A DNA stretch of 63,316 bases, the filler included, from Folioceros fuciformis (taxonomy: Eukaryota), in assembly GCA_049999805.1 (NCBI GenBank). It is 8 parts of 8 records of this genome, joined end to end, with 100 filler letters (N's around TTAATTAATTAA, not from the genome) between each part and the next. Parts side by side here need not be neighbours in the genome. Positions count along the whole stretch, not along the records: positions 25,222 to 34,098 come from JBNGIO010001962.1; 7 more parts are not named here. One strand, 5' to 3'. Below the pieces are notes generated by a model. It worked only from the letters and a program-made list of their open reading frames with translations. It searched no databases and was not told the origin of the DNA. This document shows, piece after piece, positions 10,257 through 43,629 of this stretch (the stretch's first letter is position 1; each line of letters begins with the position of its first letter). The position numbers and the translations under genes are program-made.

Positions 10257-11250
10257 ACCCACTGAAAGCTTAGTTACGAGAGCAATCGGGACCAGCTGAT
10301 ATCGCACTTGTGCAAAAAAGAGCTAAGGATTGTACGTCTCCCTCTGAATATTGTTTGACTTTGGTTATGGTGTTTGCCTCATCTTCAGTTGCATGGCTTA
10401 TTGACTCCCTATCGATCTGCTTCATGCAAGAAATTCCGCTTTGTAACTCTTGAGGTCATGTGTGTACCATGCAGGTACAAGGACAGAGTTAGGATCTTTC
10501 CGGGTGTCAAAGCCCTAGTGGAAGTTTGTTACGGCATCTCTCGATAAATAGTGAAGTCTTATTCTAAGAGGCGTAACTGAAACTTGAGTACAAGATTGAA
10601 ATAATTTAAACTGGAATTCTGAAACTTGACCACTAACAATGAAGAGGAATGGCAGCTGTGATTCCCATAGTCTTGAACCATGCTTTCGCACGATTAAAGG
10701 TAGTGTGAATATCTCATTCTGTGCTTGTGCGTGGACATCAAATGATCACAGACCAGAAATTGAGAAGAAGTCTATTACAGTCCACCTATTGACTTGAGAC
10801 TCTGTAGATCCTCCTCTCAAGATTTCTCAGAAATGGCTGGCAGGCCGATACATTCTAGAGCAAATTTGCCTTTCAATTGCTCATGTCTTAATGAGCTATA
10901 GATGTTCATATTTATTTGTATTTAGCTAAGCGTTATCGAAGCGCAACGTTGCTAGAAGTCCCTTTAAGGACCCTCATTTTGACCATGTCCCGAGCTCGAT
11001 CCCGGTCCCCCCAAGTGTTAAAAACCATTGGGGGTCCCGGAGCCTAGTGAAGAGTCCGGTCCTGAGCCTCGTTCCCAACAAAACATGGGGACTGATGGTT
11101 CCTGAAAAAGGCCCAGTAATGCTGGGGAGAGCAGCCTTCACAGCAGAGTATATCAGACATTTATATTAATATTTTAATTAATTTATTTGGTATTTATTCC
11201 GTGAAACAACCAAGAGTCGCAAAAAGGCGCGGTTGCAACCAGTTCAGTAG

Positions 11251-11361
11251 GAGGAAAACCGACAAAACGACATTTGATGAGTTGCACAAAAGTGAGAGTA
11301 TGGTTACGAGGAAAACCGACAAAACCAACATTTGTTGAGTTGCACAAAAGTGAGAGTATGC
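11251..11361. repeat. Two-copy ~57-bp tandem duplication
   Basis: gaggaaaaccgacaaaac..acatttg.tgagttgcacaaaagtgagagtatg occurs twice. Confidence 0.85.
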
Positions 11362-13649: not shown

Positions 13650-14812
13650 ATGGTGAGGATGGAGACGGGGTTGGTGGTGTTGGCGATGTTGGTGGTGTCG
13701 ATGATGGTGCCTGCCGACGCGCAATTGTCTGTGGGGTTCTACAGAAAAGTGTGCCCGCCGAAGGTGAACGTGGAATCGATCATCACCAAATCCATCACGG
13801 CGTCTTTCAAAGCGGACTCTGGGACGGCCCCGGGGGTGCTGCGCATGCACTTCCACGATTGCTTCGTCAATGGCTGCGATGGATCGGTGCTCGTGACCTC
13901 CACTCCCAGCAACACGGCGGAGCGAGACGCTCCGCCCAACAGGTCGCTGCGGGGATTCCAGGCCATCTTTGACGCCAAGACGGCAGTGGAGGCGGCGTGT
14001 CCTGGGAAGGTCTCGTGCGCGGACATTTTGGCGTACGCTGCTCGGGATGTGGTGGCTCTGGTCTGATTATCGATTCCCTACCTCAGCATGTTTCTGCAAG
14101 CGTTGTTGCCGTCATGGCTTACGTACGTGGATTGCTTTCCTGACTGTGGAATGGTGGGATGAATCTGTTTTGCAGTCAGGAGGTCCGAAGTACGCAGTCC
14201 CAGGGGGCCGGAGGGACGGTCTCACCTCTCTCAGCTCGGACGTGACCGGCAAACTCCCCGGCCCGCAATCCACAGTGTCCCAGCTCGTGGATATCTTTGC
14301 GAGCAACGGGCTCGACACCAACGAGATGGTCGCCCTCTCTGGTGAGCGGCCTGGACTCCGGCCGGCATGTCCAGGAGTGCGAGCTTGTTTCTTATGCGCA
14401 GGAAAATTAATGTCTTTTGTGTGAAAATGCAGGGGGGCACACGATCGGAGTGGCCAACTGTGCATCATTCTTCTTCAGGCTCTCGCCTCCGGACCCCACT
14501 TTAAACAGCACGTTGCTTGCAAAACTTCAGCCTCTCTGTCCCACCAGTTCCACCGCAGCCCAGTGGCCCATGGATACGACCAGCACTAAATTCGACAACG
14601 CTTACTACAAGGGCTTGGAAATTGCAGATGGCATTTTCCAGTCTGACCAGAACCTGTTCATCGACAGCTCAACCAACAGCCAGACCGTGTTATTCGCCAA
14701 GTCCCAGGCCGTCTTCTTCTCCAAGTTCGTCTCAGCCATTGTGAAAATGGGCTCCAACGGCGTCCTCACAGGCACAGCAGGACAAATCCGTGCCGATTGC
14801 TCCATCGTCTGA
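13650..14812 (+). CDS. Class III secretory peroxidase (318 aa, 3 exons)
   Basis: Exons 13650-14060, 14176-14341 and 14433-14812. Signal peptide ending ADA-QLSVGFY; distal motif LRMHFHDCFVNGCDGS; VSCADILAYAARD; GRRDG; proximal MVALSGGHTIG; FDNAYY; GQIRADC. Confidence 0.97.
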
Positions 14813-15139
14813 ACACTTTGAATCCTCCTCCTGAATGCATGATTTTGTGACACACCCAAGGACCCCATATCCAATACACCACGATCGCATATGCGTGCTG
14901 TACTGATTTTCTTTCACCCTTAAGTGTAGCCACATTGGAGACGATCCACTCTGAATAGCAGCATCTGGAGTGAGGACACTCTGAGGATGGCCTATCGGAA
15001 CTCTTGACTACGATCCGCGCTCAGAACTGACGTTGCTCAGGTCGGAAATAAAATACTGAAGCTGTATTGATAACGCTATAAGTTGATAGTCACATTTCTT
15101 GACCGTCTTGACTATATATCATAGTTAATCAACGAGGTC

Positions 15140-16671: not shown

Positions 16672-17684
16672 TTATCCAAACTCGCTGACAAACTTCTCTT
16701 CTGCATGATTGATTACAGGTTGCGTTCATGGGCTTAGCACAACTGTAAACAGGGAAGATATGCATTCTCAGTGGAATGTAAGCGTGAGATTACAGCTCAT
16801 ATTACCTGGAAGCCCTACACCCCTGTTTGCCAAGCCATCAGCTGCCGCATTGCTCTCCTGCCAGACGTATCAGGTAAAACAATATCAATATAAGCACGTC
16901 TTTCGGGGAAGATCATCTATATGCGCTATATTCACGCGACCTACAAGAAGATGAAAACCATGGCTGTTCTCAAGAGTCATCGAAACACCCACCCTAAAAA
17001 CGTGGACGATCTTGCATTTGGCAAACTTCCCTTTGAGCCACTGTGCCTCTTTACACAGAACTGCCAAATGTGGCTTGTTGACTTTCCACTCACCGTTGAC
17101 CTGAAACGGACCAGCACAGTGACGGTCACTATGTCCACACGGACAAACACGGAGCATTAGCACCTTCTCTTCTGTACCGCACCTGTTTGCAGACAAGGTC
17201 CGAATCCCCTTTGACTGTTAGATGAGTGATTCCACGTTCCAGAGCAGCCCTCATCCCAGCAATCAAGCCCCGATACTCTGCCACATTGTTCGTTGTTCTG
17301 CCCAACCCCAGGGACTTCTCAAAGATCTGCCCATGAGCCAGACCAGAACTAAGTTATTACAACAATTGATGCTCCAAGGCCGACGATATGTAGTTTACAC
17401 TTACCACTATGCCACTTGGATCCTTAAGAAGTGCACCAGCACCAGCAGGACCAGGGTTGCCCTTTGCGGCACCGTCATACTCCAAAGTGTACTCGCCCTA
17501 TCATGAGGAGCATCCGTCAGACACAAGGCATGCACTGCATCTCCTTGGTGTCAGAAACATATGCTACCTTATTCTGAGCAAGACATGCTGCTCCAAACAA
17601 TCCCGTACGATGCACCTTGGTCTCTTTTCCGCGTTGAGGCACTTCAGAATCAAAAGGGGGAAGCTGCCTTTTCAACGAGGAACC
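16672..17684 (-). CDS. RNH1: Plant-type ribonuclease H1 (core exons certain; N-terminal exons uncertain, possibly reaching ~18004)
   Basis: Exons 17497-17405 (GEYTLEYDGAAKGNPGPAGAGALLKDPSG), 17326-17183 (GRTTNNVAEYRGLIAG...VKGDSDLVCKQ), 17100-16993 (VNGEWKV...IVHVFR), 16857-16806 (ESNAAADGLANRG) and 16700-16672 (stop). All are GT-AG and in phase, and the D-E-D-D catalytic residues are intact. Confidence 0.92.
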
Positions 17685-18633
17685 CTGCCTGGCCTCTTGA
17701 GCTGGTTCTCAATTACTTGCCACTCAAGCTTTTTCCAAATAAGCCAATTTTGACAAGGAAGAGTTGCTCATACCTGCTTCAGATGGGGAGCTAGGAGCTC
17801 GCGGAGACTCCCCGGCCGAGCGCTCTCTGTGACGTGCAAGTGCACTCAGATTACTCCGGACTCTTCTCGGATCCTGTGGAAGCACAACACATAACCTAAG
17901 GCCCGCAAACGCATGACAGACGATAGGTTGCAACGGCAACATGCACAGCTTACACTGGGATCCACTGTGAAAACGAACAAACTGCTATCCATCCTGTTGT
18001 CCATAGCTCATCAACTTCTCGTCCATTCAGCCCTCGGGTCACCCGCTACGTCAAAGCGAAGTTCCCCAGTTTCTCCCTTCGTTGATGCCGCTGTTCCGGA
18101 TTCCGCAGCCTCGCCGCAGAACCCTTCATTTCTTCGCTTGTCGAATAACTATACGTAGCTCGAACATACGCTGGGAATACAACGGACGACGGCAACCTCA
18201 AGGCACCCGTGACTTTCGCGCTGCCACCTCACCAACGAGACCAGCTTGCTGTGTCCATCGCAACGGAGCCCAAGAGGGTATCAACTCAGGTGCATACAGG
18301 TAGTTCCCCACAATTCATAGCCGATTTGCCCCCATCGTTTGTTTAAAGGCTGCTTGGGTATTAGCAAGACGAATGCAAGTTGAATTTCAGAAGGACGGAT
18401 ACACAAACCCAGCATCTTGTTGCTGAATATTTCTACCCTCTAGCCACCTGGACCATGGTAGGGATCCAGAATCTTTCAACTCTGTACAGATGACTGACGA
18501 GACGTGAATCCGGCATGGATGCAGATATCACAGCCACGGGTCATTTTGCAAAAGGACTCACGACCCTCTATATACATACAAGACAAGAGCGGGGAAGCCC
18601 TGGTGTGCTGAAGCTGGATGCCAAGATGCTCTC

Positions 18634-19948: not shown

Positions 19949-22522
19949 CTACTGCGGCCTGTTGTCTTCATCTCCATGAGCAAACCAGCAATTAGGGCCA
20001 AATCGGCACGTGCCTCTCATCCAATACTGGCAAATCTGTTGTCCGGAAGCGGCTGTGCCTACCGGATCCCGAGCAACAGTGACAATCGATTCCTCGCCTG
20101 AAGTAGTCGGGGCCAAATCCGCCGTCACTAGCCCATCGGTTCTACGCAAGGTTGCCCCACGATTCCTAGGCAGGGATGCCCTGGCCCTAGGGCTCCTAGG
20201 CAAGGCTTCCCTAGAGGGCACTTGGAAGACTGGCACAACGCGCCCAGGCAAGACTGACCCATCGGGCCCATAGTTGAGTAGTGGCCTCTGGGGCCTGTTG
20301 TAAACGACTGGCCCGTTGGGCCCATAGAAGATTGTCCCAGGGGGCAGAGGGAAGCCTTGCGGTTGGGGCCCGGTCAAGAGTGGCAGATAGGGCCCAGGGA
20401 AGACTGGCGGTTCGGGCCCAGGCAAGACCGGCGGGTCGGACCCAGGCAAGACCGGCGGGTCGGGCCCAGGCAAGACCGGTGGGTCGGGCCCAGGCAAGAC
20501 TTGCGGCTCGGGCTGAGGCAAGACTAGAGGGTCGGGCCCAGGCAACGCTGCCCCATCGGGCCGCCCATAGTAGACTACCTCATTGCCCCTTGCCCTTACT
20601 AGCGGAGGGACCCAAGGGACGATGCCCAATCCGGGTGCGACTAATTCACGCATAGCTAACGCATCCATCTCCCGCAAAATGTTCATCTCTTCAATATCAC
20701 ATCTACAGGTCCGCTCCCTGTTTATCCATGGTTCTCCACATTTGTAACAAAACTCGTGGCCACACCTGTCAGTGAGCAAGCAGAAGGCACCATTAGCAGA
20801 TATCTAACAGAAGAAACAGAATGGCACAGCTTCTGTATGTGACACTTGGGATGGATCAAGAACTCACACGCATTTCAAATGAAAGCAACCGTCTACCAAC
20901 TCGATCATGCGATTGCAATTCCCACAACGCTGCCAGTTCAAGTCCTTGGCAAGCTCCAACAGCTTTCCTTCTCCGGCGTATTTGAGGTCATGAGGTAGCG
21001 ATTGATACTCTTCACAGCTCATCAGACCGTGCCAGGGAACTTTGCAAGTAACACAGAAGGATCTAGAGCAAGAGCGGCATTCCATCCTGACGGGGGATCC
21101 AGCTTCTGCACCACTGGTTGAGCTGGCCAGTCCACTGACGTCCACATCCCGTCTCGACATGAGTGCAGAACAATTTGGATATGGACAGTATATCCGGTCT
21201 GCCTCAGGAATGGCTGCTTCTGCCTGTCTCATGCTCAGTTTTTCAAACATACTAGGAGATAAGAGCACTCTGCACTCTTCTGCCGACAGGGTTTTGGTGC
21301 ATTGCACATACGGACACGTTATAAATAGTGGCCTTGCCTCCATTCGGCAACCAGCATGTTGCCTCATACAATTCTCACAGAATGAGTGACCACACTCCTG
21401 CACCACGAACATCTCACTCGAGGATTTGTCCTCCATACATATTTCACATCTCTCCAGCTTCACATCAGATGAAAAAGCACTAGCACTAGCACTAGCACTC
21501 GCACTGGCACTAGCACTAGCACAGGCACTAGCACTGGCACTAGCACTAGCACTAGCAGCACCGCCGTCGACGTCCCTTGTTTCAACAGTTGGACTCTTGT
21601 CCCGCAGTCTTCCTCCTTTGGCAGCCACTTCCGCCAAGCGACATGCAGCAGCGTTGGCTTCCGTAGAGACAAGAACCACTTTAAATGTCCTGAGGTCCCT
21701 TACGTGATCAAAAACCCTCCTCCACTGCTCGTACTCATCCCGAAATTCTACTCTCCGCACACCAGTGAGCTGCCACAATGTCAAAAACTCTGTTAGCAGA
21801 CGGCACAGACATGCATTGTGGCACTGAGCAGAAACACCAGACTGAAGCGATTTAAAGCCACATATATCCAACACTCAAACACTAATTACCTGATCGCACA
21901 CCAGCTCCGAGCACGCATACACACGAACATCCGTAACGTCAACGTCTACGGCAAACTCTAATCCATCAATCAGGGCTAGATAATATGCAACACGAGGTGT
22001 AACATTCCTTCCAACGTACTTGCTCCCAGCGCACGTAACCTGCCCATCGGGATCGACCAGAACCCATCCTATACCAGCAAACTTGTTGTCCAGCACGGTG
22101 CCATGGAAGAACAGTTTGGACGCGTCCGCGTCCGTCGCACGAGAGCTGCCCTTCACCCGAACGGTAGCGGACTCCTCATCCCTATCGCCCTGCTCGGGCC
22201 ACGCTTTCTTCCCTTCTTCTATGATGTTGTCCAAAACTTCCCAGTGACGCAGGCTCTGCTCCGAATTCTCAATGCCTTCCCCCGCGTCCCCAGCAGCTCG
22301 TCTGGAATCCAGGGCTTCCATATCCTCTCCATTTCGCTCATCATTCTGTAAATTAGCCGCCACAGAGACGTGCACGGTTCCAGCTACTCCCTCACCACCA
22401 GCTGCCAAATCGTCTTCCGTCAAATTCTGTTCTCTGGAAGCAACCGGCACCTCCACCTGCAGGCCCTCCTCCAGCATCGTATCCCCCAAACTCACGCGAT
22501 CCATATTCGCCTCCGGATTCAT
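19949..22522 (-). CDS. RBR (RING1-IBR-RING2) E3 ubiquitin ligase, RSL1/RFA-like, with degenerate RNase-H-like domain, Pro-rich repeats and C-terminal CCCH finger
   Basis: Exons ~22522-21890, 21769-20868 and 20765-19949. RING1 CEICMED...CGHSFCENC...CPYVQC; IBR YCPYPNCS...CRSCSRSFCVTCKVPWHGLMSC; RING2 CGNCNRMIELVDGCFHLKCVCGHEFCYKC; CCCH CQYWMRGTCRFGPNCWFAH. The start codon is tentative. Confidence 0.92.
21477..21560 (-). repeat. Coding hexamer microsatellite (GCTAGT)n encoding (AS)n
   Basis: gcactagcactagc... translates to ASASASASASACASASASASASASAS inside RBR exon 2. Confidence 0.9.
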
Positions 22523-22836
22523 CCCAACTGAGGCTGCCACGCTCAGCCTGCTGGCCGTTGTAGAGACCCCAACTGTCAAACTGTGAACTGCTTCCTTAGA
22601 CGCTGGTTCACAGGGCTCCACTGCAACATTGGTTAGTCAGGTTGTGGAGCGTTGGCTCAAGTGGGAGAAGAAATAACTTCTACGTTGCGAATCGGTGGAT
22701 GACGAAGTTCATACACGCAAGGACCTCTCTATGTATGCCCGTTCCATGCATTGGGCGCACGGGGCATACGTAGAGGCGCGTTCTTTCATCTGCCCTTTCT
22801 TTTCGTATCTCTGTCAACCGTCATCTTATTCAAAAC

Positions 22837-25121: not shown

Positions 25122-25221
25122 NNNNNNNNNNNNNNNNNNNNNNNNNNNNNNNNNNNNNNNNNNNNTTAATTAATTAANNNNNNNNNNNNNNNNNNNNNNN
25201 NNNNNNNNNNNNNNNNNNNNN
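25122..25221. other. Artificial contig spacer N44-TTAATTAATTAA-N44 (identical spacers at 34099-34198, 38887-38986, 43197-43296, 49605-49704, 54039-54138, 60131-60230)
   Basis: The same 100-bp structure occurs seven times, and the 12-mer places stops in all six frames. Confidence 0.97.
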
Positions 25222-26099
25222 AAATTCTTAGGAATCCTTGGACATTTGTGGAGGACTGTGGAAGGTCGCTGAAGTTGCTGTAAGTTTGCTGGAAGAGCTG
25301 GAAACATTGCTGGAGAAGTGAAGAGAAAATGGTTGAGAAGTTGCTGGAGAATGGAGAAAAAGTGCTGAAGATTTGGATGCGAATCCTGGAGAATTTATGC
25401 AAGATTTTGAGGTGTTTGAGAGCAGTTGTGGGAGTTTGTTGAAGCCCATGAGGGATTGTGAAGGATTTGTTGAAGATTGGTGGTCATTGCTGGAGATTGG
25501 AGCCCTTGGGGGCAGGCCTGTGAGAATAATTGTGAAACAGAGCTCTTGTGTGTGTTTTGTGTGTGAGGGGAGTGTTGCATGAGTGTGTGGGGAGGTATGG
25601 CTGATCCACAAGGCTTCGTTCCCCAAGGATTAACCCTTGCATGTGTGAGGAGCATGGAATAAGCCAGCTCTGTGAGTCTAGAAGGTCTAGGGCAAAAACC
25701 CGCCGCGGCTCTTGCGCCAAAAATAATTAGTTAGGGTTTGGGGTGGGACCCACCACGGTAGTGGAAAGATGGCGGAAGTTGTCGAATAGTAGTTGAGATC
25801 CTCCGGGGTAGTTGAATGGACCCCCTCCCCGGTAGTCGAGGGAGTCTGAGAGGTAGTGCAGAGCCGAGGTAGCTAAGTCGCAACGGAGGTAGCTGAGTCG
25901 CGACAAAGGTAGAGATAGTTGAATGGTAGGTAGACGAGTGGCAGGCAAGTAGAGGCTGATCTTGGGTAGTAACTGACTTTGTGAGAAAACCTGTGTTATT
26001 TGACACAAATCATTCCCTTGGGATTGAATCCTAGTGCTATAACGACATAGAGGGCTTGTGTGGACCTCGCAGTACCCCCGGCTGCAATATTTTCCAGCA
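25222..26099 (-). mobile_element. LTR-like repeat family B, copy 1; abuts and truncates the methyltransferase
   Basis: Shares long blocks with 54139-54931 (e.g. cccttgggggcaggcctg, aataattagttagggtttggg, atcattcccttggga...acgacatagagggcttgtgtggacctcgc.gtacccccgg). The boundary is approximate. Confidence 0.75.
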
Positions 26100-26877
26100 T
26101 ACCAAGGCCGTTATTCCTATACCCGTAGGAACCAAGATAATTGACCACCGTGGGCAAGGTCCTCCTTGGCTGACCTGGTGTGTTGGTAGGGAACCATGGG
26201 GCCCTCTCCTTGGATGTGATAGGTTTGGGGGTATGATTGTCATCCAGCACATCCTGTAGGAGTCGAGTAGGGTCCCGCTGCTGCTCTTGTAAGGCCAAGT
26301 TCAAAACAGTATTTGTCCAATAATTCCTAAGTCTGTGAGCATAGCTGCCCACCTAAGCAGCATCTATGGTGAATGGCTTGCCAATGACCTGCTGAATGAC
26401 ACCCATGTCTTGGCGTAACTGAGGATGAGCATCCAATTGAGCTGGTGTATTTTCCAGCAAGTAAGCCACAGGTGGGTGCTGATCCTGGAGCCATCGAAGT
26501 ACTTGCACCAGATCCCTAAATAAGCTTGAACAGCTGCTGTGCAGCCCTGCTCCTTTCCCAGCTTGGGACAGACCCTGGCACTCCTATCCTGCGATTAGCA
26601 AATCCACAGTCCCAATAGCCTAGATGTGTGCTTGCTGGATATACCAAATGTTCTATGGAAGAGCACTACACATGCTCTTGCTGGCCTGTCGGGGAAATTG
26701 CTGAGGAAGCTGTTGCTGTAGCAATTGCACTCGATGGATTGCAATGTGCCTAACAACTGAGCAGGCATCACAATAGATGTATCTGGAAACAGTAATGCCG
26801 CACTTCAGCACTGCCTCTAGACTAGTGCACAGGCCCCCAAATAGCTCCACCAAGGTAATCCCTTGTGGTGTAGGCTG
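26100..26877 (-). pseudogene. C5 cytosine DNA methyltransferase domain within a retroelement polyprotein (4 in-frame TAG stops)
   Basis: A single frame carries motif I GITLVELFGG, RYIYCD, motif IV VDLLIAG*ECQGLSQAGKGAGL...SSLF (catalytic Cys 26578-26580), motif VI YLLENT and motif VIII DAA*VGSYAHRLRNYWTN. Confidence 0.9.
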
Positions 26878-29800
26878 AGTTAGAAATGCCATGCGGAAGT
26901 GTCTTGCATCAAGTAGATGCTTTACAAAGAAGGATAAACAATCAACTAAGGTTTAGGTTCATAGGTTCTTATACTATGGCTGAGTTACAGACTGGCCGTA
27001 AACTTCAGTGTATTCGCTCCGACAATGCGGGAGAACTCGACAACCATTAGTTTTGCGACTTCTGCGAGCAACGTGGTGTCTTGCGTCAGTTTATAGTGCC
27101 CTACACTTCTGAGCAGAATGGCATTGCTGAGAAGGCCAATGGCGATTTGATGTCCATGGCTCATGCCATGCTGGCACAGTCCCAGCTGCCCAAGTCCTTT
27201 TGGGCTGAGGCTGTGTCTACTACGGTGTACATTAAGAACAGAGTCCTCACCAAGTCGGTTTCTGGCCGTACTCCATATGAGTGTTGGCATGGGAGCAAGC
27301 CTTTCATTTCACATCTTCGTGTTTTTGGTTGCCTTGCCTATGCTCTTGTCCCATCACAGCTTCGCGACAAGCTTGATGCTCGTGCTTGCAAGTTGGTGTT
27401 TGTCGGTTATGGCAATGACTGCAAAGCCTACAAGCTCGTGGACTTGGACTCTCGGATTCCTATCTATGCCCGCACTGTCACCTGTGATGAAGCTAAGATA
27501 GTGCCTACTCTTGCGACGTCATTTGAGCCTCCTCTTGACGTGCAAGATAGTGCTTCCTCTGGCTCGAGCACTCCTCGCTCTTCTGGTGATACTTCTATTG
27601 ATCACTTTGTGCAGCCCTTTACTTTTCCGACTGTTGGTGTTCCTCCTCCTCCTGTGGCTCCTATCCTTCAAGCAATTCTGGTGCCACGAGTTGTTGGTCC
27701 TGCTCCCCAAGTGCAGCCCGCTCCTGAGTCACTTGTTCCTGCTCGAGAGGGGGACATGGAAATAGACCACGAGGTAGTATCTGAGGACCCACGTACGGAA
27801 CAAGGTGATGTTGAACATGTTGATTTTGAACACGTCGTGCCCCATGATTTCCTCAAGCACCTGTCACTCCTCCATCCCCACCTAGGCCCCCGGTTGCTCC
27901 TAAGCGTAGATATCCTACTCGTGTGCGCCAGCCTAGGCATCTTTGGAAGGAACAACCATTTGATATTGAGTTTAATCAAGCTAGCTTGACCTATGTTAAT
28001 TCTTCGAATGCTCTCTATGCCTTAAGTGTTACTGCTGCAGAGGGAGATCCTTTAACCTTACAAGAGGCTTACTCAGGACCCGAGTCAGCCAAATGGAAGC
28101 TGGCTATTGATGATGAGTACAACTGATTACTTAAAAACAACACTTGGACTTCGGTTAGTCTGCCTAAGGGTAGGACCACTGTCAAGTGCAAATGAGTTCT
28201 TAAAACTAAGTTCCAGGAAGTAGAGCCACGAATTCGCTACAAGGCAAGATTAGTAGCTAAGGGATATAGTCATAAAGAGGGAGTGGTTTATCAAGGCGAT
28301 AAGGTTTACTCACCCGTCGTCAAGGCTGCATCAGTTAGAATGCTCCTTGCTTTATGTGGTGAACTAAACTTGGAGATCTATCAGCTTGATGTGTGTACAA
28401 CCTTTCTCTATGGTCATCTTAAGGAAGAGATCTACATGGATCAACCCGAGGATTACGAAGATAAGGCTTGTCCACAAAAGGTGTGTAAACTTAATCGCTC
28501 AATTTATGGGCTTAAGCAAAGCCCACGACTGTGGTATGAGAGAATGGATTCATATCTTAAGAAAATAGGTTTTGTTCAAAGTGAAGCAGATACTAATATT
28601 TATGTGCTATGCAAGGATAGCTCACTTGTTCTAGTTGCACCCTTCGTGGATGACTTAATCATTCCAGGCAATAACGTTGAACTAGTCAACAAGATAAAAG
28701 CTGATCTCAGCAGGGAATTCGAGATGAAGGACCTAGGAAAGGTTAAGTATATCCTTGGCATGCATGTACATAGGGATACCACAGGTGCTATCTATCTTCA
28801 CCAAGGTAGATATGTAGCCACTATGCTCAAACGCTTCAACATGGAGAATGCTAGGGCGTCAACCACCCCAGGTGCGTTTGGAGTCAAGTTCTCATCTGCC
28901 TCATGTCCCCAATATGAAGAAGACAAGAAGGAGATGGAAAATATTCCTTATCGCATGGCAGTTGGCACCCTCATGTTCCTGAGTAATCAGACAAGACCCG
29001 ATATATCCAACACAGTCAACGTTGTTGCCCAGTTCTCTGAAAACCCAGGAAAGGATCACTGGGTTGCTATCAAGCGAATTTTGAGGTACCTTAAGGGTAC
29101 ACCTAATTATGGCCTTTGCTATATGCTAAGCGGGAAGAAGCATCTGCAGCTAACTTGTTATGTAGATGCAGATTGGGCTTCCGATGCAGAGACCCGAAAA
29201 AGTATATCAGCTTATTGTTTTCTAGCCAACTCCTCTGTAGTTAATTGGTCATTTAGAAAACAAGCAGCCATCTCCCTGTCTTCCACAGAGTCTGAGTACA
29301 AGGCACTCATCGAAGCCACTAAGGAGGCTGAGTGGGAAAGGAAGCTTTGTGAAGACTTGGGTATGAAGCAAGAAGGGCCAACAATCTTGCATTGTGACAA
29401 CATGTCAGCAATTGCTTTGGTTGCTAACCCCGTCTTCCATGCACGCACCAAGCATATAGAAATTCAACATCATTATATGAGGGATGCTGCTGAGAGAGGT
29501 ATCGTCAAGGTTCAATATATACCTACCGACGACAACACAGAAGATGTCTTGACCAAGTCCTTGCCTAAGTTCAAACACTGTTTTCACATAGAAGGGCTTG
29601 GTTTGGTGGATTGTAGTAGATACATGACACTAGACAAATCACTTATTTGGTAGGACCTTTCACTACACAAATATTCCGTCACTTAAGTTGATGATACGAA
29701 GCAGTTGGCATGCTTCTCTTCTGGTCACTTGAGTGGTGTTCTACTTTGTGAGATCTTGTAGACTATAGGCTCTACAAGAGTGAGGACTACCGACTCTAGG

Positions 29801-30115
29801 TGATAGCCGTTTTGAAGATGTTTAAAGCTTGGCGTCAACAGCAGTGATCTCCGTTTGTACTTAGGAGCTCTCTTCTAACAGCAACCAGCACGTATCTGAG
29901 AGGGAGAGTTGGAATATAAGGCAGACCACGTGGTTCTATATTTCGTTGGTTAGCCTAATTAGACATAGTTATAAGTGTAGTTAGTTAACTGACAGGTTAG
30001 TCAAAGGGCACACCCCTTCGTAAACTGCTACTTAAGGCCTACCTTTGTATCCACCTAATCAATTTGCTAATATATCATTTTCAATGCATCTGCTTTTGCG
30101 TTAGCAATTCTATCT
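26878..30115 (+). mobile_element. Internally deleted Ty1/Copia insertion (integrase-RT-RNase H, PPT, 3' LTR ~29908-30115) flanked by a GGCTG TSD
   Basis: IRSDNAGE, PYTSEQNGIAEKAN, YQLDVCTTFLYG, YGLKQSPRLWY, YVDADWA, HARTKHIEI; purine tract gagaggggag before ~29908; GGCTG at 26873-26877 and 30116-30120. Confidence 0.9.
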
Positions 30116-33100
30116 GGCTGCCAAGTAATGACGGCCTGTTGGATAGGAGAAACATCTACTGTCTCCCCTGTGGCTAGGTCTGTGAAAGCCTGCTGCAGCA
30201 CTTGCATGACACGAGTGACTGTCCCTGAGCTTGCTGTAGACGCTCCTTGCTAGTTGTGAGAACCCCAGATAGGACCTGAGAGTGTAGCTACGTTCCCAAC
30301 GCATCTTCTTCAGAATTAGGAACAAGAATATCCTCGTCCTCTCCACACTCAGCTAGCCATACTTGAGCGCGATGGTCTAGTGGTAATGAGGGCATTGTCC
30401 CATCCTCCCATGGCTGGATCTGCACCATGCATGCCTGCCGTACCACCAGCGTGGCCTCGGCTGCTTGTGTGGTGCCATGCAAATTCAGGGGCAAGTAAGC
30501 AATGCATTTTCCCCCTTGCTGCCAATATGGCCTATAAAAGGCCTGTTCTATTCAGTTGTCAATGGAAACTCCTGGAGGGAACAAAAATTCCTGTCCCAAC
30601 AGGATGTCATAATTGGTGGCCCTTGTGACTAGGCAGCGCACCATCAAGCTCACCTCATCCACTATGTTGGGCTTCAGAGTAATCTTGACTGGTTGGGTGG
30701 TTTCCCCTTTGACAGGTTCAATCGCTCCTGAGGCTATGCAAATATTCCAGGGAGACGGCTACAGAGCACTCCCTTCCAATCGCAGCCTAGCAGCCAGAAC
30801 CTTCCCTATGATGACTGGTTGTGCTCCCGTGTCCAACAACACAGCTCTGGGCGCAAACCCATTCACCAGCACATGGCTGCCGCGATTGTCCACCAGCACA
30901 TTGCCAATTGTGGCCTTGCGCCGATTTGTGGGCTGTACGACTGGCAAGCCCTGGCTTTCACAAGCCAATGGTGCAGCTTGCACCCTCTTGCCTGCAACAT
31001 GATGCCTATAGCAGCTTCTTCAATTCCCACATCTTGCAGGCTGAGTAAGGGTGTCTTGTGTACCCTCTTCAGCAGCTCCTTGTGTGTTAACACCATAGTC
31101 AAGAATCAGACAGCTTGATCAGGTTTAGGTGTTTTAGACCTATGATGCTGGCTGGAAACTTGGTCAGCCCCTTGTTCCACTTGGTCTCCTTTAGGCAAAT
31201 GATCTATCCCCTTACTAGTATGTTGGACCCTGGTGGAAGCTGCTGGAACGACCTAGGTATCGCAGCCCTAGCACCCTGCTGGCGTGTGGTCACGGCAACT
31301 GTCCCCAAAGCATGTCCCAACCATGTTTGTGGTAGTTGCTCACCAACCCTAGACAGGTCTAATTGCTCTAAGCCTCTGCCATGAGACGACCCAAACCCTT
31401 GCTGCTCCGTGTGTGTTGTGCGGGCTTCCATGACGGGACCATAATCCTCATCAAGTTCGGCTGATGTTTTGTTAGCCACAAGTTCCACCACACTGGCAAA
31501 CTTGGCAGCATTCAAGCTGGCTGCCAACGTGCTAACATGAGTGGTCAACGCTGCCATGGCTGTCTCTAGGGTAGTCAATTTGTCGGCTTGGGCAACCGTC
31601 TTCTGCTAAGCCTTGTTACGCTTGACTTGGCTCTTGCTGACAAGACTCCCTCCTGTAGCTACCCTTGCTGAAGCACTTCCTGAACCACTTGCTCCTGCAG
31701 CAATGTTAGGCTTAGTAGAAGCAGTGGTGGTAACATTGGAACCTATCCCTGTTTTCCACAGTCGTCGTTCCGGATACTTTGAAAAACAGACTACTTCCAC
31801 ATGGTCTGATTTCTGGCAGTGAGTGCAACGTAAAGAGTCAGCACCTACCTTACATGCAGGCAGGAGATGGTCAGCACTGCCACACCTATTACAAAGTGTG
31901 GTAACAATAGCTGCTGCCCCAGCCTTGGCGGGCTTAGCCTCCCTACCCTTGTTGGCAACACCCTAAGTAGTTGCCGAACTACTCTTCCCTGAAAACATCT
32001 GCTGGTAATGGTGAAAGACTTTTGTATGCTGAGAAGCATACGCTGAAAAAGCTAGTTCCTTCCTCTCCGCTTCTTGGTAGACCTGATCTAGTGTGTAATT
32101 GTCCCCATACTTGTCAACCAAGGTAGTAAGCAACTAACAGTGAAACAATGGATTAGTCTCCAAGGCAACCAAAAACTTTTGAGCTGCCTCTTGGTCGGTC
32201 AGCATGCCCGTACCATCTCTTTGCTTCTGCAATCGCTGAAGGCCATCTGGATAGTCTCACCTTTCTTGCGCGCAAAGGCTGCAAGCTCCGCAATCTTCTC
32301 TGGGGTCTTGGTTGGAAAAGCCCTATCCAGATTCGCAAAGAAATCCTCCACGTGGTTGTCATGCTTGGGCACGTCCAACTTGTCAAGAATACCAGCTGTG
32401 GCAGTAGCCATCTCTTGTTGAGTCATGTTTACTATCGTAGGTGGTGGGACTGATGTTGCAATGGTGCCAGCTGCAACCCTTGCTTGGTGAGTGGCCACCA
32501 CAGTAGCCAGCAGACTGCTGTATGCCACTTGTAGGGCTGCCGTGTAAGCAGGGTTAACCTTTTCTACCACCGCCAACATCTCTGGTGCATGAATCTCAAA
32601 CAAGTCCAAAGCTTGTTTGTTTATCAGCGGAAGGCTGGGACAAAAAGACAAAAGTGTTGTTGTAATAAAAGTGTTCAAAAACATTGTGTAAAGTACTTTG
32701 TTTGTATGGGCAACCCTAAGGGTGTGACCCTTGGATATATTCAACCTAAGCAGGTTAAATTGATTAACCCTAACACTCTCTCTTAACCTGCGATGGTTAA
32801 AAGCGAAGCTTAAGAGCTAAGGACTGAAGGACGACTCACACGAACTCCAGCTAGCACCACGTTTCCTCGTGGCGGCCCTTTAGTTGCCATCATTACTTCT
32901 CATGATAACCTTTTGTGCTATGGCATTGATGGCGATCACAGCCTACAGTCTGGCTGTTCATCCAAGCTACAAAAGGCGACTTGGCGCTTAGCAGAAGCAG
33001 AACTTTGACAGATCAATAGGGGCCTTACTTCCAATTGCGGCAGTGCGCTACCACCGTCACCACTTGCACCTACAAGATGGCTTGTAGCAGCTTTGATTCT

Positions 33101-33202
33101 TTGGAGATGGGCAGCAGTAGCATCGAGCGTCTGAGACCTCTGCCACCCAAACAGCTCCAGCTCTATCAGCTCCCTCTGTGATTGGGAAGTCATGGTGGCC
33201 AA
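30116..33202 (-). mobile_element. Decayed gag (two CCHC knuckles) and aspartic protease of the methyltransferase-bearing retroelement
   Basis: CNRCGSADHLLPAC-KVGADSLR-CTHCQKSDHVEVVC at ~31788-31893; VLLDTGAQPVIIG at ~30822-30839; CLVTRATNYDILLG; ends AVITWQP at the TSD. Confidence 0.8.
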
Positions 33203-33204
33203 CC

Positions 33205-34098
33205 AAAGCTGACATAAAGCTGCCGTGGCATCAGATCAAGGTGCTCGAGAAGTGCAACGAACTGGAAGACCTCCTCTCGTCTGCAAAGAAGAAAGCACGG
33301 GAACTAGAGGCGCTACAAGCTATGACACCTGCCGAGGACAAATTGTCATAACCCTTAACACCTGCAGAGTACAGTGCAGTGATGCGGGAGCTTGAAGAGC
33401 TTGGCTACATCCTTCGCTTAGCAACAAGTGAGAGGTAAACATGTCATCTTACAAAACTCTAACATGTGATGCACTCACGACTGGATTCTGAACTTAGGTT
33501 TCATCCACTGAGGGCACCACAACATTGACCTACTGTGAACAGGAGACAGTAAAGCAAGCCCTGTATTTTATGCGGACAGCAAGACCAAGTATGGACTGCT
33601 GCAAATTGGGCAAGGTGCCTTGCCAGCTACCTCCATGAGGACTGAATTAGGTAGGTCACCTACTAGTAATGGGCATGGAAAAAGCCCTCAGCCCAAGGGC
33701 TTCTAAGTGTTTGTAGTGCTTCTTCTTGGACAGACCCTTAGTAAAGATGTCAACAGTGTTTTCATTGGTACTGACATACTGAACTCTCACCATGCCCCTT
33801 TCAGCTACATCACGAACATAATGGTGATAAAGTTCAATATGTTTGGTTCTGGCATGGAACCTTGGGTTCTGGACAAATGCTGTAGCCGACATGTTGTCGC
33901 ATAGCAGAGTAGTTGGGCCAATCTGAGGTAAGTGTATTGCTTCCAAGAATTGCCTCTCCCACTCTAATTCCTTGCATGTGTCTATCAGGGCTTTGTACTT
34001 AGCTTCAGTGGACGACAACGCCAAGGATGTTTGCTTTTTACAAGACCATTTTGTTGAGTTATCGAGCTCTATATGAGCTAAACTCATGTGGTGTTAGT
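33205..34098 (-). mobile_element. Ty1/Copia RNase H end plus 3' region
   Basis: WSCKKQTSLALSSTEAKY...LLCDNMSA...FHARTKHIELYHHYVRD...VDIFTKGL (33656-34087). Confidence 0.9.
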
Positions 34099-34198
34099 NN
34101 NNNNNNNNNNNNNNNNNNNNNNNNNNNNNNNNNNNNNNNNNNTTAATTAATTAANNNNNNNNNNNNNNNNNNNNNNNNNNNNNNNNNNNNNNNNNNNN

Positions 34199-37100
34199 GT
34201 TAATGAAGATGAGAACCTTCACCTTAACTTTTGATCATGCAGGCTTCACACTTACTCAAGTTGGTAGCCAAGATATTGCATGGATAGGGTATCCCCTTTA
34301 GGACACCTACAAACTAGAAGCCATGCAACTAACCGTTTTCCTTGTGATCATGAAAGTGCACTTGCCATACAGACACCTGACAAGATTACAGGCAGTCCCA
34401 AAGAAGCCTACAAGTGGCACCTTCGACTTGGACATCTCAGTAATGCACGGCTCCACCAAGTGGCAAACTCTGACCTATATCTTGAGAAGATTTGCCGTTT
34501 TCTTGATCCGCCCTTTTGCGAGACTTGCGTCCTTGCAAACAAAAGACAAGATATGTTCCCTCATCACCACCAAGATGAGAACAGCTCAATTCTTAAACTG
34601 GTTCACTCGGATATATGTGGACCCATGAGCTCACCGTCCTATGGCGGTGCTCGATACTTTCTCTCTCTTACTGATGACTTCTCGTAGATGTGCTTTACAT
34701 ATCCTCTAGAGTTGAAGAGCCAGACTTTTGACATCTTCAAGACCTGGCTTGCAATGGTTGAAACTCAAACGTCTTGCAGGCTTCGTTGTCTGTGCTTGGA
34801 TAATGGAGGGGAATTTGCAAACCACCTCTTTGATGAGTTCTGCAAGAATAAGGGCATAACTCGTCAATTCTCTGTGGCTTACACCCCACAGCAAAATGGT
34901 ATTGCTGAAAGACTCAATCAAACCCTTCAACGCATGGCCAGGGCCACGTTACGACATGCCAGCCTTGATGTTAGGTATTGGGCTGAGGCCATAGCCTTTG
35001 CCACATATCTGAAGAATAGGCTTCCCTCTCGTTCTATTAACGGGAGAACGCCCTTTGGGCTATGGATGGGTTCTAAACCCTCACTCCTACATCTCAGAAT
35101 TTTTGGCTGCTCAGCTTTCAGCTTTATTCCTGCTGTCAAGCGCAAGAAGTTTGATGATCGGTCTGAAAAACTACTCTTCCTAGGTTATGGTGAAGGCTTG
35201 AAAGCCTATAAATTATATAATCCGGTCATAGGAGCCTTAATCTTCTCACTGGGTTATGGTGAAGGCTTGAAAGCCTATAAACTATATAATCCCGTCACAG
35301 GAGCCTTAATCTTCTCACGCAGGGTTACCTTCTTAGAAGACCCTTTGATTCAGTCGGCTACTTCCACTTCAGCTTCCCAGATATGCATCCATTTGATATG
35401 CGTTCGTCTGACGATGTCCGCTTGGATGCTTCAACTTCCTTACCAATAGACAAGCCTGATTCTTTTTCAACGCCTACTACTATTATTCCTCCAGCTCCAG
35501 CTAATGTAGCCACTCCTCCACCTGAACCCGCTTTGATGTTTGGAGATGTTCCTCTCGTTATGCCAGCAGATCCTCCACCAGTTGAGGAGCTTCCTCCTCC
35601 TAAACTAGTCGTTGTAGATCCTGTGCCCACTCGTGAGCTTCGACCTCAACACTCTCTTCGTGCTCCTACCAGGTTTCAACATACCACCTTTCGTCCTATC
35701 CGAGGCAGTGGGAGTCATGGAGGGGAAGTTCAGGCCAGTAATCCAGTTGAGCTAACTCCCCTGGATCCTGGCAATGCTCTCCCTGCCCCTGCCCTAGAAG
35801 ACGAAAACTCTTCAGGCCATGTTCTTGCTGTAGATTTGCTGGCCTTACCTTCTAGCAACACTTTCTTTGATCACACACCTGATCATATTAGTGAGGTACA
35901 CCAAGCCCTTCTCTCTCGCGTTCGAGCCTCTGAACATATTGTTCCTGTGGACATTGCTCTCTCAGGACCTGAAAGACATGAATGGCTTAATGCTATAGAC
36001 TATGAATGGAAATCTTTAATTCACAATCAAATGTGGCGGTTAGAAGATCTACCTCCTGGACGTTCAGCAGTCTCCTGTAAGTGGTGCTTCGTAAAAAATA
36101 TAATCCTGATGGATCCCTCTCTCGCTATAAAGCCAGATTAGTGGCAAGGGGCTTCAGCCAGAAGCCTTGGGTGGACTATGATCCAGACCTTTATGCTCCA
36201 GTGGTGAGATCCGAGTCCATTCGCTTCGTTCTTGCCCTATTTGCTGAACGTGACCTCATTCTCCACCAAATGGACGTCAGTACAGCGTTCTTATACGGAG
36301 AACTTGAGGAAACAATTTATGTCGCAGCCTGATATGTATGTGGATCCCAAGTACCCCAACAAAGTGTGCAGACTTCTCAAAGCTATATACGGACTTAAAC
36401 AAAGTCCTAAAAACTAGTACAAGAGGATCAATACATACCTTCTCTCCTGTGGTTTTGTTCGAAGCCCATCTGATTCGAATGTGTATAAACTCCACACCAG
36501 TTATGGCTATGTACTCTTGTACCTATACGTGGACGATTGTATCTTGGCCGGTAGCACACAGACAGCACTAGACAAGGTCAAAAACATTCTCAGAAAGGAA
36601 TATGATATAAAGGATGTAGGGGAATTGAAATATGTGTTAGGAGTGCAAATCGAAAGAAACTTACCACAACATGAACTCTGTATACACCAAGAGAAATACA
36701 TTGGCAATATTCTGAAGAGAATGCACCTTGAAAATGCTCGCCCTATTGACACACCCATGGTGACCAATCAACCATTGACTATCATGGATTGTCCACAATC
36801 TGAACAAGATAAGGCTGAAATGCAATCAATTCCATATCGTCAGGCAGTTGGCTTACTTATATATATATATGTTGCTAACTGGACAAGACCTGAGATACAG
36901 TACTCTGTCAATCAGGTCAGCCAGTTCTTACACAATCCAGGAAAAACACATTGGGTAATTGTTAAGCGGTTATACAGATACCTGAAAGGCTCACCAAGGA
37001 TGGGAATTCACTCTATAGGAAAATAAAAAATACCACATACCTTTGATAGGCTACTCAGACGTTGATTGGGGTAGAAACCCCTATGATCGTAGAAGCATTG

Positions 37101-38700: not shown

Positions 38701-38986
38701 TTTTGTTACTAGGGCATGGCAAGTGGAAATGGGGAAACTCACAGGCCTCAACTGCTTGCAGTAGCGTAGGGTACAAAGCTTACAGCTAAATCCGGCTCAT
38801 TCAGATTGAGCTGGTTGAACGCAAGGCCGTCGCCTCCTGGTGATGTTTATGGTGAAGCATACTGGTAACAGCTGATCGCGATGGTCNNNNNNNNNNNNNN
38901 NNNNNNNNNNNNNNNNNNNNNNNNNNNNNNTTAATTAATTAANNNNNNNNNNNNNNNNNNNNNNNNNNNNNNNNNNNNNNNNNNNN

Positions 38987-39679: not shown

Positions 39680-40820
39680 CTAGCTACCTCAGCAATTGTT
39701 AGAAGAGGATGTTGTTCACCCACGTAGGTCAACTCGCAAGCACACTTTGTCTCCCCTTGAGTGGAACGAAGTTCCTTATGCCATGGAAGGGCATCTACCT
39801 CGTTCATCCATGATATCTCAGGTATATCTAGCAGCCTCAGATCTGGGAGAACCACAAACGTATCAAGAGGCAATATCATCAAAGGACAAGGACGAGTGGC
39901 TTGAGGCCATAAGGTCAGAGTATAATTCATTGATCGAGAATGATAACTGGGTGCTAGAAGACTTGCCACATGGAAGAACACTAGTCACAAATCGTTGGGT
40001 TTTCAAATGAAAGCTCAACCTTGATGGTACCATATCTCGGTTTAAGGCCAGACTTGTGGTGCATGTTTTTTCTCAGTGTGAGGTCATAGACTATAATGAA
40101 ACTTTCTCGCCTGTAGTTCGCTCTTCTTCTGTCAGAACTCTGTTGGCCATTGCTGCGTTGAAGGGATTTCATGTCCACTAGATGGACTTTCAAACAACGT
40201 TTTTAAATGGAGTGCTTGAGGAGACAGTTTTCATGTACCAACCAGAAGGATTCGTCAGCCGAAAATATCCAAACCGAGTTTGCAGGTTGAAGAAGACTCA
40301 ATATGGCTTGAAGCAAGCCCCAAGGGGGTGGAATCGACGTTTGAACAAGTTTCTTTTGCAGCATGGCTTCAAGCAATCAGCAGCACATGGGAGTGTATAC
40401 GTCTACACAAAGGGCAGTGAATTAGCTTACCTGGCCGTCTACGTTGATGACACTCTCATCATAGGTTCTTCTATGCAAATCATGAATGAGATTAAGCAGA
40501 TTCTGTTGTCTGAATTTAAAATGACTGATATTGGATAGTGCACTTTCTTCTTAGGAGTGCAGGTTTTAAATAACAAGCAATCTGGTGACATTGTGTTACA
40601 TCAAAGGCACTATGTGGAGAGGCTTTTGGATAAATTTAACATGAGAGATGCTAAGCCTGTAGCAACGCCGATTGCAGTGGGAGTTATCCTTACACAAGAT
40701 CAGTGTCCTAACAGCTAGGCAGAGATAGATGAGATGGTCAATGTTCCTTATAGGATGCTTGTAGGATGTTTGTTGTGGTTAAGCTCATGAACTAGGCCAG
40801 ACATAGCATTTGTGACTTCA
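39680..40820 (+). mobile_element. Ty1/Copia RT fragment with stops
   Basis: EPQTYQEA, MDFQTTFLNG, YGLKQAPRGWN, AVYVDD, TRPDIAF. Confidence 0.9.
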
Positions 40821-41780
40821 GTCGGGTTTACCAAGATTGATCTGAGATCCTGCTTTCACCAGATCCGGATCAAGGAAGGGGATGAGTCTAAAATAGCCTT
40901 CTGCACAAGACATGGCCACTTCGAGTTCAAGGTCATGCCGTTTGGCATGACAAACGCCCTTGCAACATTCCAATGTCTCATGCAGGACATCTTACAACCA
41001 TTGTTGGGGCACGGAGTAGAAGTATTCCTCGACGATATCCTCATATACACACTTGATCTAGAGACACATTACACCTTGGTCAAAAAGGTCCTCGAGCTGC
41101 TGCGTGCAAACAAGTTGTTGGCCAAAAGAAGTAAGTGTGTCTTCATGAGGTAGGAGTGTGAATATCTGGGCCACATCATTAGTGCAACAGGTATCCGAGT
41201 AGATCCCCGCAAAGTCAAAGCCGTGGTGGACTAGCCCCTACCTCAAGATATCACACAACTATGTAGGTTCCTGGGCATGGCCGGCTTTTACCGCCGCTTC
41301 ATCCAAAGTTTCAGTAAAATAGCTGTTCCCCTGACGGATGCCCTTAGGCACTCAACCACCAAACCCTTACAACAAGGGCTAGAGGCAGTCTAGGCATTTG
41401 AACAACTCAAGCACGCCCTTAGTTCGGCTCCCGTACTGGCGGTGGCAGACCCCCAGGCCCCATACACCCTGCACACAAATGCATCAAATTTTGCTATGGG
41501 TGCAGTACTGTCACAACAAGGTCGAGCTATTGCCTATGAGTCCAGGAAATTGCAAGGGACACAGTTGAAATTACGTTATAGATCACAAAGAGATGTTGGC
41601 GATCACCCACGCTCTCAAGGTGTGGAGGCATTACCTCTTAGGCTAGAAGGTGTTGTGTCACACAGACCACCACTCCTTACAACATTTCTTCTCACAACTC
41701 AACCTCAACTCCAGACAGCGTAGGTGGGCCGAATACCTGGCGGATTTCGACCTCGAGATCAAGTATGTTACTGGGACTTT
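40821..41780 (+). mobile_element. Ty3/Gypsy (chromovirus-like) RT-RNase H fragment
   Basis: [75 protein letters not shown]. Confidence 0.9.
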
Positions 41781-43196: not shown

Positions 43197-43629
43197 NNNN
43201 NNNNNNNNNNNNNNNNNNNNNNNNNNNNNNNNNNNNNNNNTTAATTAATTAANNNNNNNNNNNNNNNNNNNNNNNNNNNNNNNNNNNNNNNNNNNNCCCT
43301 TGAACCGTTCCATACATCAAGTGTTGGCGCAAGTCCAGGAAGGCCATGCACAAGCTTACATTTCACTAGGGTTGTCTTGCAAACATAGCCTAGGTGGCCT
43401 CTGCTGCATATCCTTACACTCTGCCTACCGCTCAGGTTCCTCGTACTCATCCACAGATTAAGCGAACTAAGATCGCCTTTTCTTCTTCCTGTGGATACAA
43501 TATGAAAGGAAATTGGCACACTAAACCCATCAACAGCCCACAAGTAGATGCACTCTACGTATGTGCCTGCCATGTTTGGACAAGGTCATCTCACTTCAAA
43601 ACGCATATCCAAATGATTAGCTAACGTAC

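Follow-up and report, generated by a model that had tools for sequence, protein, structure and literature searches.

Does a cytosine methyltransferase that lies behind a retroviral-type protease in a plant genome belong to the retroelement, and if so, to what kind of retroelement? The question is raised by a stretch of 63,316 nucleotides from Folioceros fuciformis (assembly GCA_049999805.1), here called the window, and our annotation indicates that one part of it is very probably a dead copy of a Ty3/Gypsy-type 'Gypsy-DNMT3' retroelement in which a Dnmt3-like methyltransferase directly follows the protease. The window consists of distinct contigs separated by seven 100-base spacers (44 N, TTAATTAATTAA, 44 N) located at 25122-25221, 34099-34198, 38887-38986, 43197-43296, 49605-49704, 54039-54138 and 60131-60230. 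Since these spacers join separate contigs, only positions 25222-34098 (JBNGIO010001962.1) represent the true genomic context of the element, and the whole copy was found within this single contig on the minus strand.

The interrupted polyprotein of the window

The first stretch of the copy with homology to relatives is a gag core at 32238-32681 (minus strand, as are all parts of the element given below), which aligns in tblastn to residues 44-180 of P0002, a database polyprotein of 1214 amino acids, with 36% identity over 149 residues and no stops. It is followed, in a different frame, by the gag C-terminal part and nucleocapsid region at 31525-32238 (tblastn to P0002 residues 181-410), where TAG codons occur at 32136, 31965 and 31608. 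Two CCHC zinc knuckles (CX2CX4HX4C twice) reading CNRCGSADHLLPAC and CTHCQKSDHVEVVC were observed in the translation at about 31783-31893 and were aligned to the knuckles of P0002 and P0010; the Pfam zf-CCHC family gave only E 0.075 on them and no family was reached at E 0.01. The retroviral-type aspartic protease occupies 30471-31088, with 41% identity to P0002 residues 649-854 and stops at 31022, 30761 and 30554. It reads AVLLDTGAQP near 30822-30851 and, with the stops taken as X, lies above the Pfam cut-offs for both PF13975 (31.4 bits against 28.2) and PF13650 (28.6 against 24.3). The linker between protease and methyltransferase, at 30116-30470, is poorly conserved, changes frame between 30288 and 30249 and ends in ...QQAVITWQP at 30116-30120. 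An earlier sequence-only reading of this DNA had placed two knuckles at 31788-31893, an LLDTGA protease at about 30830 and a frameshift in the linker near 30220, and all three were recovered here. No similarity to relatives was found from 32681 to 33202, homology beginning only at 32681, and an open reading frame (ORF) at 32936-33235 that was considered as the N-terminus of the element was rejected for its lack of similarity to P0002.

Beyond an insert described below, the frame resumes at 26877 with TPQGITLVELFGG and leads into a Dnmt3-type C5 cytosine methyltransferase at 26095-26877, which contains motifs I to VIII together with part of the target-recognition region and is 44% identical to P0002 residues 950-1213. 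By the usual motif names and consensus, the motifs follow the canonical, non-permuted order, with LVELFGG as motif I, IAG-stop-ECQGLS as motif IV, LLENT as motif VI and GSYAHRLRNYWTN as motif VIII. The domain carries TAG codons at 26655, 26622, 26586 and 26355, and when these four were read as X this stretch passed PF00145 (cut-off 22 bits) at 27.8 bits and E 2.1e-6; a 76-residue piece taken by itself reached no more than 17.7 bits. The sequence-only reading had named motifs I, IV, VI and VIII and also held the region to be free of introns and proposed the in-silico join with a Pfam check; our results agree with it on each count, with the addition that motif IV is interrupted by an in-frame stop. 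The reading frame runs without introns from the protease and linker into the methyltransferase, and neither PWWP nor ADD parts were found in the window methyltransferase. Homology ends at 26095, after ...NNGLGML, where relatives continue with EPxAxERERAMGF and LLGxAMDxN in the motif IX/X region, and motifs IX and X are missing from the window copy, whose catalytic domain is incomplete.

When the domain was compared with the sequences of solved structures, the top 29 of 55 matches were DNMT3A, DNMT3B or DNMT3C (E 7e-8 to 9e-4). Far behind these were M.HhaI at 0.013 and 4onj at 0.038, the latter a permuted plant enzyme of the DRM type. By these matches, the window methyltransferase appears to be closer to DNMT3 than to other classes.

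The protease-linker part and the methyltransferase part are separated by a nested Copia-derived insert of 3238 bases at 26878-30115 (plus strand), which is flanked by GGCTG at 26873-26877 and at 30116-30120 as the two copies of a 5-base target-site duplication. The insert together with one GGCTG (26878-30120) amounts to 3243 bases (3 x 1081), and both flanks are in frame 0 after its deletion. P0002 is colinear with the window through gag, knuckles, protease, linker and methyltransferase, and its join reads LVTWTPPKEGLTLLELFGG where the window reads VITWQP followed by TPQGITLVELFGG; the two are of equal length, with no residue more or less. An uninterrupted paralog was found in X4, a sequencing run with the same species label from another study, whose RNA nature is a guess of the index. 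One contig of this run (1359 letters, about 91% alike) covers 26321-26873 and 30132-30915 and skips the insert, and the 19 letters between its two parts correspond to the site with a single copy of the 5-base target. The right junction is also spanned by contigs with 0 differences (30043-30347) in the DNA sequencing runs X1 and X2. Because these runs, the best DNA runs available, may be the assembly's own data, the X4 contig is the only independent point on the assembly. Both the flanking GGCTG copies and the restoration of the frame upon removal of the insert and one copy had been put forward from the sequence, and the colinear relative and the X4 contig bear them out. The join of gag, protease, linker and methyltransferase is thereby confirmed as real.

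The insert itself comprises the C-terminal part of an integrase, an ORF for reverse transcriptase (RT) and RNase H at 28196-29653 and a 3' non-coding tail, whereas its first 94 bases are of unclear origin. It is not a whole element, as its coding part begins inside the Copia integrase, and other Copia copies diverge left of 26972, where loose ends were observed in the DNA runs. The termini of the insert are inverted at 11 of 15 bases, and its depth in the DNA runs is 400-1100 compared to about 12 for unique contigs. Positions 26878-26990 were considered as the start of a Copia long terminal repeat (LTR) and rejected, with a local score of 24 against a shuffle mean of 26.6 and with the first 110 bases unlike the 3' region. 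The simplest reading is a Copia insertion that made the 5-base duplication and whose 5' part was lost afterwards.

The window copy is a fossil that was interrupted twice, and its methyltransferase domain is a relic and not a working enzyme. A total of ten in-frame stops (eight TAG and two TGA) were found in the stretches homologous to relatives, and these fit the decay of methylated cytosines since C-to-T decay yields such stop codons. At least three frame changes occur, near 32238, between 31204 and 31088 and in the linker, and the X4 paralog shows a one-letter length difference at both 32235 and 30223. The ratio of observed to expected CpG is 0.22 in the methyltransferase part, 0.37 in gag-protease and 0.50 in the Copia insert, compared to 0.68 in the genic region 1-22600. 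The stops, the frame changes, the strong loss of CpG and a cut by a repeat before motifs IX and X, RT and integrase together mean that this copy cannot work.

The repeat that cuts the element, which we call repeat B, is unrelated to it and lies at 25386-26093 (minus strand), probably extending to the contig end at 25222. Its head at about 25962-26093 is very high-copy; in X1 the depth summed over the bin 25814-26109 is 3525, compared to about 12 in unique contigs. A second copy at 54141-54922 (80-84% identity) has a different flank and lies beside host genes, and many copies of the repeat skip 25767-25987. The sequence-only reading had RT and integrase cut off by an 'LTR family B'; the cut at 26093/26094 by this repeat stands, the repeat being at most a candidate LTR. 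No direct repeat of at least 80 bases was found around the element between 20000 and 40000. Three other interpretations were tried and rejected. Repeat B as a tRNA-derived element gave 0 genes with ARAGORN and 0 matches in Rfam; 25996-26093 as motif IX (ALGFNPKG) fails as this stretch is part of repeat B and the second copy of that repeat is flanked by unrelated sequence; and an intron at 26094, which would explain the end of P0002, is contradicted by P0022, which reads straight on. Copy numbers estimated from summed depth in X1 are roughly 5-10 for the element at a likeness of at least 90%, tens for the Copia element and some hundreds for the head of repeat B.

Relatives, layouts and the domain tree

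The window domain was found to match polyproteins and not host enzymes. Among 2024 longer candidates, 19 polyproteins were matched at E <= 0.001, and 14 were found in a second set of 8000 candidates. A library of 1.84 billion entries gave 1590, 505 and 167 representatives at E <= 1e-3, 1e-10 and 1e-30 respectively, and a protein atlas search with P0002 gave no usable match. We classified 176 proteins by the domain pieces of L068, an apparently intact metagenome locus described below. In 106 of them the methyltransferase lies between RNase H and integrase (typically as RT, RNase H, methyltransferase, integrase and PHD finger), in 17 it lies after the protease and/or before RT, and in the remaining 53 it stands alone. 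Both domain orders were confirmed in Pfam scans, and a PHD finger behind the integrase is common to both layouts.

A domain tree of 121 rows was built without an outgroup, from which the 53 proteins lacking a flanking domain and four with fewer than 230 matched positions were omitted. One branch, with a value of 98 in the Shimodaira-Hasegawa-like approximate likelihood ratio test (SH-aLRT), separates the window and the 17 'after protease' rows from the 103 'between RNase H and integrase' rows. The window therefore falls in the rarer of the two clans, and its nearest rows are P0002 and P0022, both at 45% identity. Two clans that differ by the position of the enzyme imply that this position changed once, or that the enzyme was taken up twice from close sources.

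Truncated at 26094, the window copy retains no RT, RNase H or integrase; L068, P0022 and P0265 have them in that order. P0022, which is 82% identical to P0002, contains methyltransferase, linker, RT and RNase H; in P0265 the RT, RNase H and integrase lie directly behind the methyltransferase, and P0281 reads through into RT. The sequence-only reading had assigned the gag-protease-methyltransferase order to one retroelement lineage that was likely Gypsy-related. The colinearity of P0002 and the continuation of P0022 and L068 into the Pol domains support one lineage, and 'Gypsy-related' is right because the succession of PF00078, PF17917/17919, PF17921 and PF00665 is of the Ty3/Gypsy type.

When metagenome contigs were scanned with a P0022-headed alignment, at least 597 pattern matches were obtained, of which at least 388 encode a relative, and the best 80 loci were used. 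Most copies among these 80 are decayed, as only two have an ORF of at least 600 residues on the coding strand. A 24-base word of repeat B was found in 0 of the 80 loci, a result that carries little weight at the expected density. In the apparently intact L068, an ORF of 1369 residues for gag, protease and methyltransferase ends in TAG and is followed in the same frame by an ORF of 1047 residues for RT, RNase H, integrase and PHD finger. At 5083-5091 of L068 the TAG is followed by CAG TTA, and P0022 has no stop at that point. The context CAR-YYA is that of leaky stops in plant viruses, and by this analogy TAG-CAG-TTA in L068 hints at programmed read-through.

Among the 80 loci, 38 are at least 12 kb long, and nine of these have direct repeats flanking the coding span. 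Three of the four loci examined (L027, L041 and L080) consist of a repeat A1, a leader of at least 1.2 kb, the coding region and then B1-A2-B2, with a likeness of 87-92% among the A copies and 86-94% among the B copies. These loci (L027 at 5558-14882) are elements with a DDE integrase and split direct repeats, which resemble DIRS elements and not plain LTR elements. An intronless PPR-E-DYW gene, of the pentatricopeptide-repeat class, was observed at 17148-18536 (plus strand) of L027, 2.3 kb from the methyltransferase-bearing element. Genes of the PPR-E-DYW class are a hallmark of land plants, and with such a gene adjoining, the L027 family very probably resides in a land-plant genome. Over 1367 pairs from 53 loci, the median ratio of non-synonymous to synonymous rates (dN/dS) of the methyltransferase (0.37) lies close to that of RT-RNase H (0.39), with 0.42 in the linker, which suggests that the methyltransferase is as constrained as RT.

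The enzyme, its proposed working and the alternatives

The methyltransferase domain of L068, modelled from a 30-row alignment, reached a predicted local distance difference test score (pLDDT) of 90.4 and a predicted template modelling score (pTM) of 0.87. All Foldseek matches listed for this model are DNMT3A, DNMT3B or DNMT3C, the best at E 5.7e-19 with a template modelling score of 0.83 on the target. The cysteine of motif IV, the glutamate of ENV and the two RxR arginines of motif VIII are invariant in the 30 relatives.

In live elements, the methyltransferase would be translated together with Gag and protease, in Gag-like amounts where a stop follows it, and might then be freed by the element's own protease. 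The released enzyme would methylate the reverse-transcribed or newly integrated DNA of the element, most likely at CG, and the methylated copy would then resemble host-methylated and not foreign DNA. We advance this combination of release by the protease and self-methylation of new copies, disguising them as host DNA, as a tentative scheme that falls somewhat short of even confidence. Integration is probably guided by the PHD finger of the integrase, which would read histone tails in the manner of the chromodomains of chromoviruses. X4 covers 12 of 30 bins of the element and none of the far more abundant Copia insert or repeat B, and this coverage hints that the element is currently transcribed. 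A broader picture, which we offer as speculative, is that Dnmt3-bearing Gypsy elements might be an old and widespread group of the green lineage with two fixed layouts and a PHD-tailed integrase. In this picture the 'after protease' clan might be multi-copy, recently active and transcribed in land plants, and might use a leaky stop to make the enzyme in Gag-like amounts and mark its own new DNA with host-like CG methylation.

The alternative that survives best concerns the function of the live domain, which may methylate the RNA of the element, or serve as a binding or structural module, instead of methylating DNA. In the yeast assays of de Mendoza et al. (2018, PMC5890265), neither KnitGypsy-Dnmt3 nor SymbioLINE-Dnmt produced DNA methylation, and RNA methylation is raised by the authors for the long interspersed element (LINE). 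The glutamate in place of proline in motif IV of most of the clan would also suit such a role. However, the catalytic cysteine, the ENV glutamate and the RxR arginines are invariant in 30 relatives, the predicted fold best matches DNA-bound DNMT3A/3B, and the SymbioDIRS-Dnmt3 domains do methylate CG (PMC5890265). On this balance we consider a domain that does not methylate DNA unlikely.

A second alternative is that the element consists of gag, protease and methyltransferase only, being non-autonomous or split, and never had RT behind the methyltransferase. P0010, P0023 and P0029 end soon after the methyltransferase, and L068 has a stop between methyltransferase and RT, as this alternative would predict. 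Yet RT, RNase H and integrase stand right behind the methyltransferase in L068, in the same frame, and in P0265, while P0022 and P0281 read into RT. The window copy is cut inside the domain by a foreign repeat, which leaves its own 3' part unreadable, and taken together these observations make an RT-less element quite improbable.

The region is a mosaic of nested repeats and the window copy has no RT to link its parts, so that a decayed host DNMT3 gene or retro-copy could have come to lie beside an unrelated gag-protease through the piling up of transposons. Such an accident is very improbable, as the junction of P0002 is equal residue for residue in length, an X4 contig runs across the junction, the other 17 rows of the clan all adjoin protease or RT, and PWWP, ADD and introns are absent. 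An artefact of a fragmented short-read assembly, for which the short (4-9 kb), repeat-ended contigs and the lack of the left junction among the listed contigs might speak, is just as hard to credit where 0-difference contigs of two runs span the right junction and the two flanks are likewise connected in a contig from another study.

Several observations weigh against the interpretation as a copy of a Gypsy-DNMT3 element with a DNA-methylating enzyme. The window copy itself has no RT, integrase or terminal repeats, with both of its ends cut off by other repeats and by the limits of the contig, and its membership in Gypsy rests on relatives that are at most 43-45% identical to it over the full domain, with short fragments reaching 55%. 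Motif IV has ECQ in place of the usual PCQ, a variant shared by 12 of the 18 rows in its clan when the window is counted. The left junction (26877/26878) has no spanning contig among the contigs listed, and the X4 paralog may be out of frame at the site since a hand count places it about four letters over the clean join. One X1 contig, on whose shorter side 59 letters lie, connects gag (32775) with the head of repeat B (25988) in another copy, perhaps by coincidence, through a preferred target or as a chimera. Selection is only modestly indicated, with 0.42 in the linker and only 0.49-0.70 in the shifted-frame controls, because most differences arose after insertion. The hint of transcription depends on X4 being RNA, which is only a guess, and the search of sequencing runs listed no RNA run. 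Finally, KnitGypsy-Dnmt3 is the only streptophyte element methyltransferase that has been tested, and its lack of methylation in yeast is called inconclusive by the authors (PMC5890265).

Surroundings of the element and known systems

The first 22.6 kb of the window contain host genes for histone H2B, a class III peroxidase and an RBR ubiquitin ligase with RVT_3 and a CCCH finger. The last of these, at 19949-22636 (minus strand), has its RVT_3 (RNase H-like) part, RBR/IBR ligase core and CCCH finger spread across three successive ORFs. The peroxidase exon matched at least 5000 relatives; the best 120 are 48-64% identical to it, those with names are without exception class III peroxidases of angiosperms, and none is a close match. 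The atlas clusters nearest to the ligase carry the label Streptophyta, and Pfam scans of the other host ORFs gave nothing diagnostic. From these genes the host reads as a streptophyte, and probably as a land plant outside the angiosperms. The remainder of the window consists mainly of Copia and other repeats, and a 69-base tandem duplication with copies 91% alike was observed at 35175-35312 (plus strand) within the integrase of another Copia element. The Gypsy remnant with RT and RNase H at 40818-41775 (plus strand) comes from a different lineage, its identity to the L068 RT being only 32-37%, and does not represent the half that the element lacks. RT of the methyltransferase-bearing family was not found elsewhere in the window. 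At the start of another contig (49739-50049, plus strand), tblastn with P0002, P0010 and the first ORF of L068 (32-41% identity) detected a fragment with motifs IV-VI of a second, related retroelement methyltransferase in a more advanced state of decay. The catalytic cysteine is replaced in this fragment, as its motif IV reads RWKYQG, and Pfam gave no match on it. A scan of the entire window against Rfam gave 0 matches, and some stretches of the window are without cover in the run X3 and in parts of X4.

The closest published system is KnitGypsy-Dnmt3 of Klebsormidium nitens, which like the window element has an intronless and non-rearranged Dnmt3-type domain inside a streptophyte Gypsy polyprotein. 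It is bounded by A-coding-B-A-B repeats as in DIRS elements (de Mendoza et al. 2018, PMC5890265), which is the layout of the window's relatives L027, L041 and L080. It differs in its host, that of the window being by peroxidase similarity probably a land plant, and from the dead and truncated state of the window copy, and it is likened here by its published description. The SymbioDIRS-Dnmt3 elements of Symbiodinium also combine a Dnmt3-type domain in a retrotransposon Pol with A-coding-B-A-B repeats. They are however DIRS elements with a tyrosine recombinase in dinoflagellates, and the authors regard the acquisition as independent (PMC5890265). Two SymbioDIRS-Dnmt3 domains carried out de novo CG methylation in yeast, and these are the only such enzymes shown to do so; self-methylation of element DNA is likewise a hypothesis published for such elements (PMC5890265).

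The polyproteins with RT, RNase H, methyltransferase, integrase and PHD finger, some of which are labelled Chlamydomonas eustigma and Haematococcus lacustris, belong to the same methyltransferase family (34-43% identity to the window) and have a Gypsy backbone and a PHD finger behind the integrase in common with the window's clan. Their methyltransferase lies between RNase H and integrase, and they fall on the opposite side of the tree branch. No paper describing them was found in our literature search. DNMT3A, DNMT3B and DNMT3C are the best matches in sequence and fold and have the same motif order, including AHRxRxxWxN as motif VIII, whereas the retroelement domain lacks PWWP and ADD, lies within a polyprotein, has ECQ in motif IV and is about 21-23% identical to them in structural alignments.

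A 2026 preprint lists 'streptophytes (Gypsy-DNMT3)' as the known case and adds DNMT4-like domains in Cymbomonas and Euglena (bioRxiv 10.64898/2026.05.21.726589). The EpiLTRs of these two genera are also LTR elements with a cytosine methyltransferase and a chromatin reader; their methyltransferase differs in being sister to DNMT4 and in its location, 3'-terminal in pol and accompanied by an adenine methyltransferase and a chromodomain (bioRxiv 10.64898/2026.05.21.726589). A land-plant case of a retroelement cytosine methyltransferase was not found in our literature search, the published streptophyte case being one alga, and the words 'methyltransferase' and 'PHD' are absent from a survey of plant LTR elements (PMC6317226). 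Both agree with the sequence-only reading, which knew of no characterised land-plant case.

The window copy is a fossil of an element kind that is already known, and its value is that of a pointer to the family. What goes beyond the literature searched are the probable land-plant hosts, the size of the family and the two clans that differ by the position of the enzyme. If true, the family would offer compact natural domains of the Dnmt3 type to work with. Plants rely on DNA methylation to silence transposons, and a plant transposon with its own de novo methyltransferase would reverse this logic. Such a transposon could disguise its new copies as gene-body-like methylated DNA, or it could disturb the methylation patterns of the host. 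Land-plant copies in the hundreds, some of them transcribed, would if true provide a natural test system for whether a transposon gains from methylating itself.

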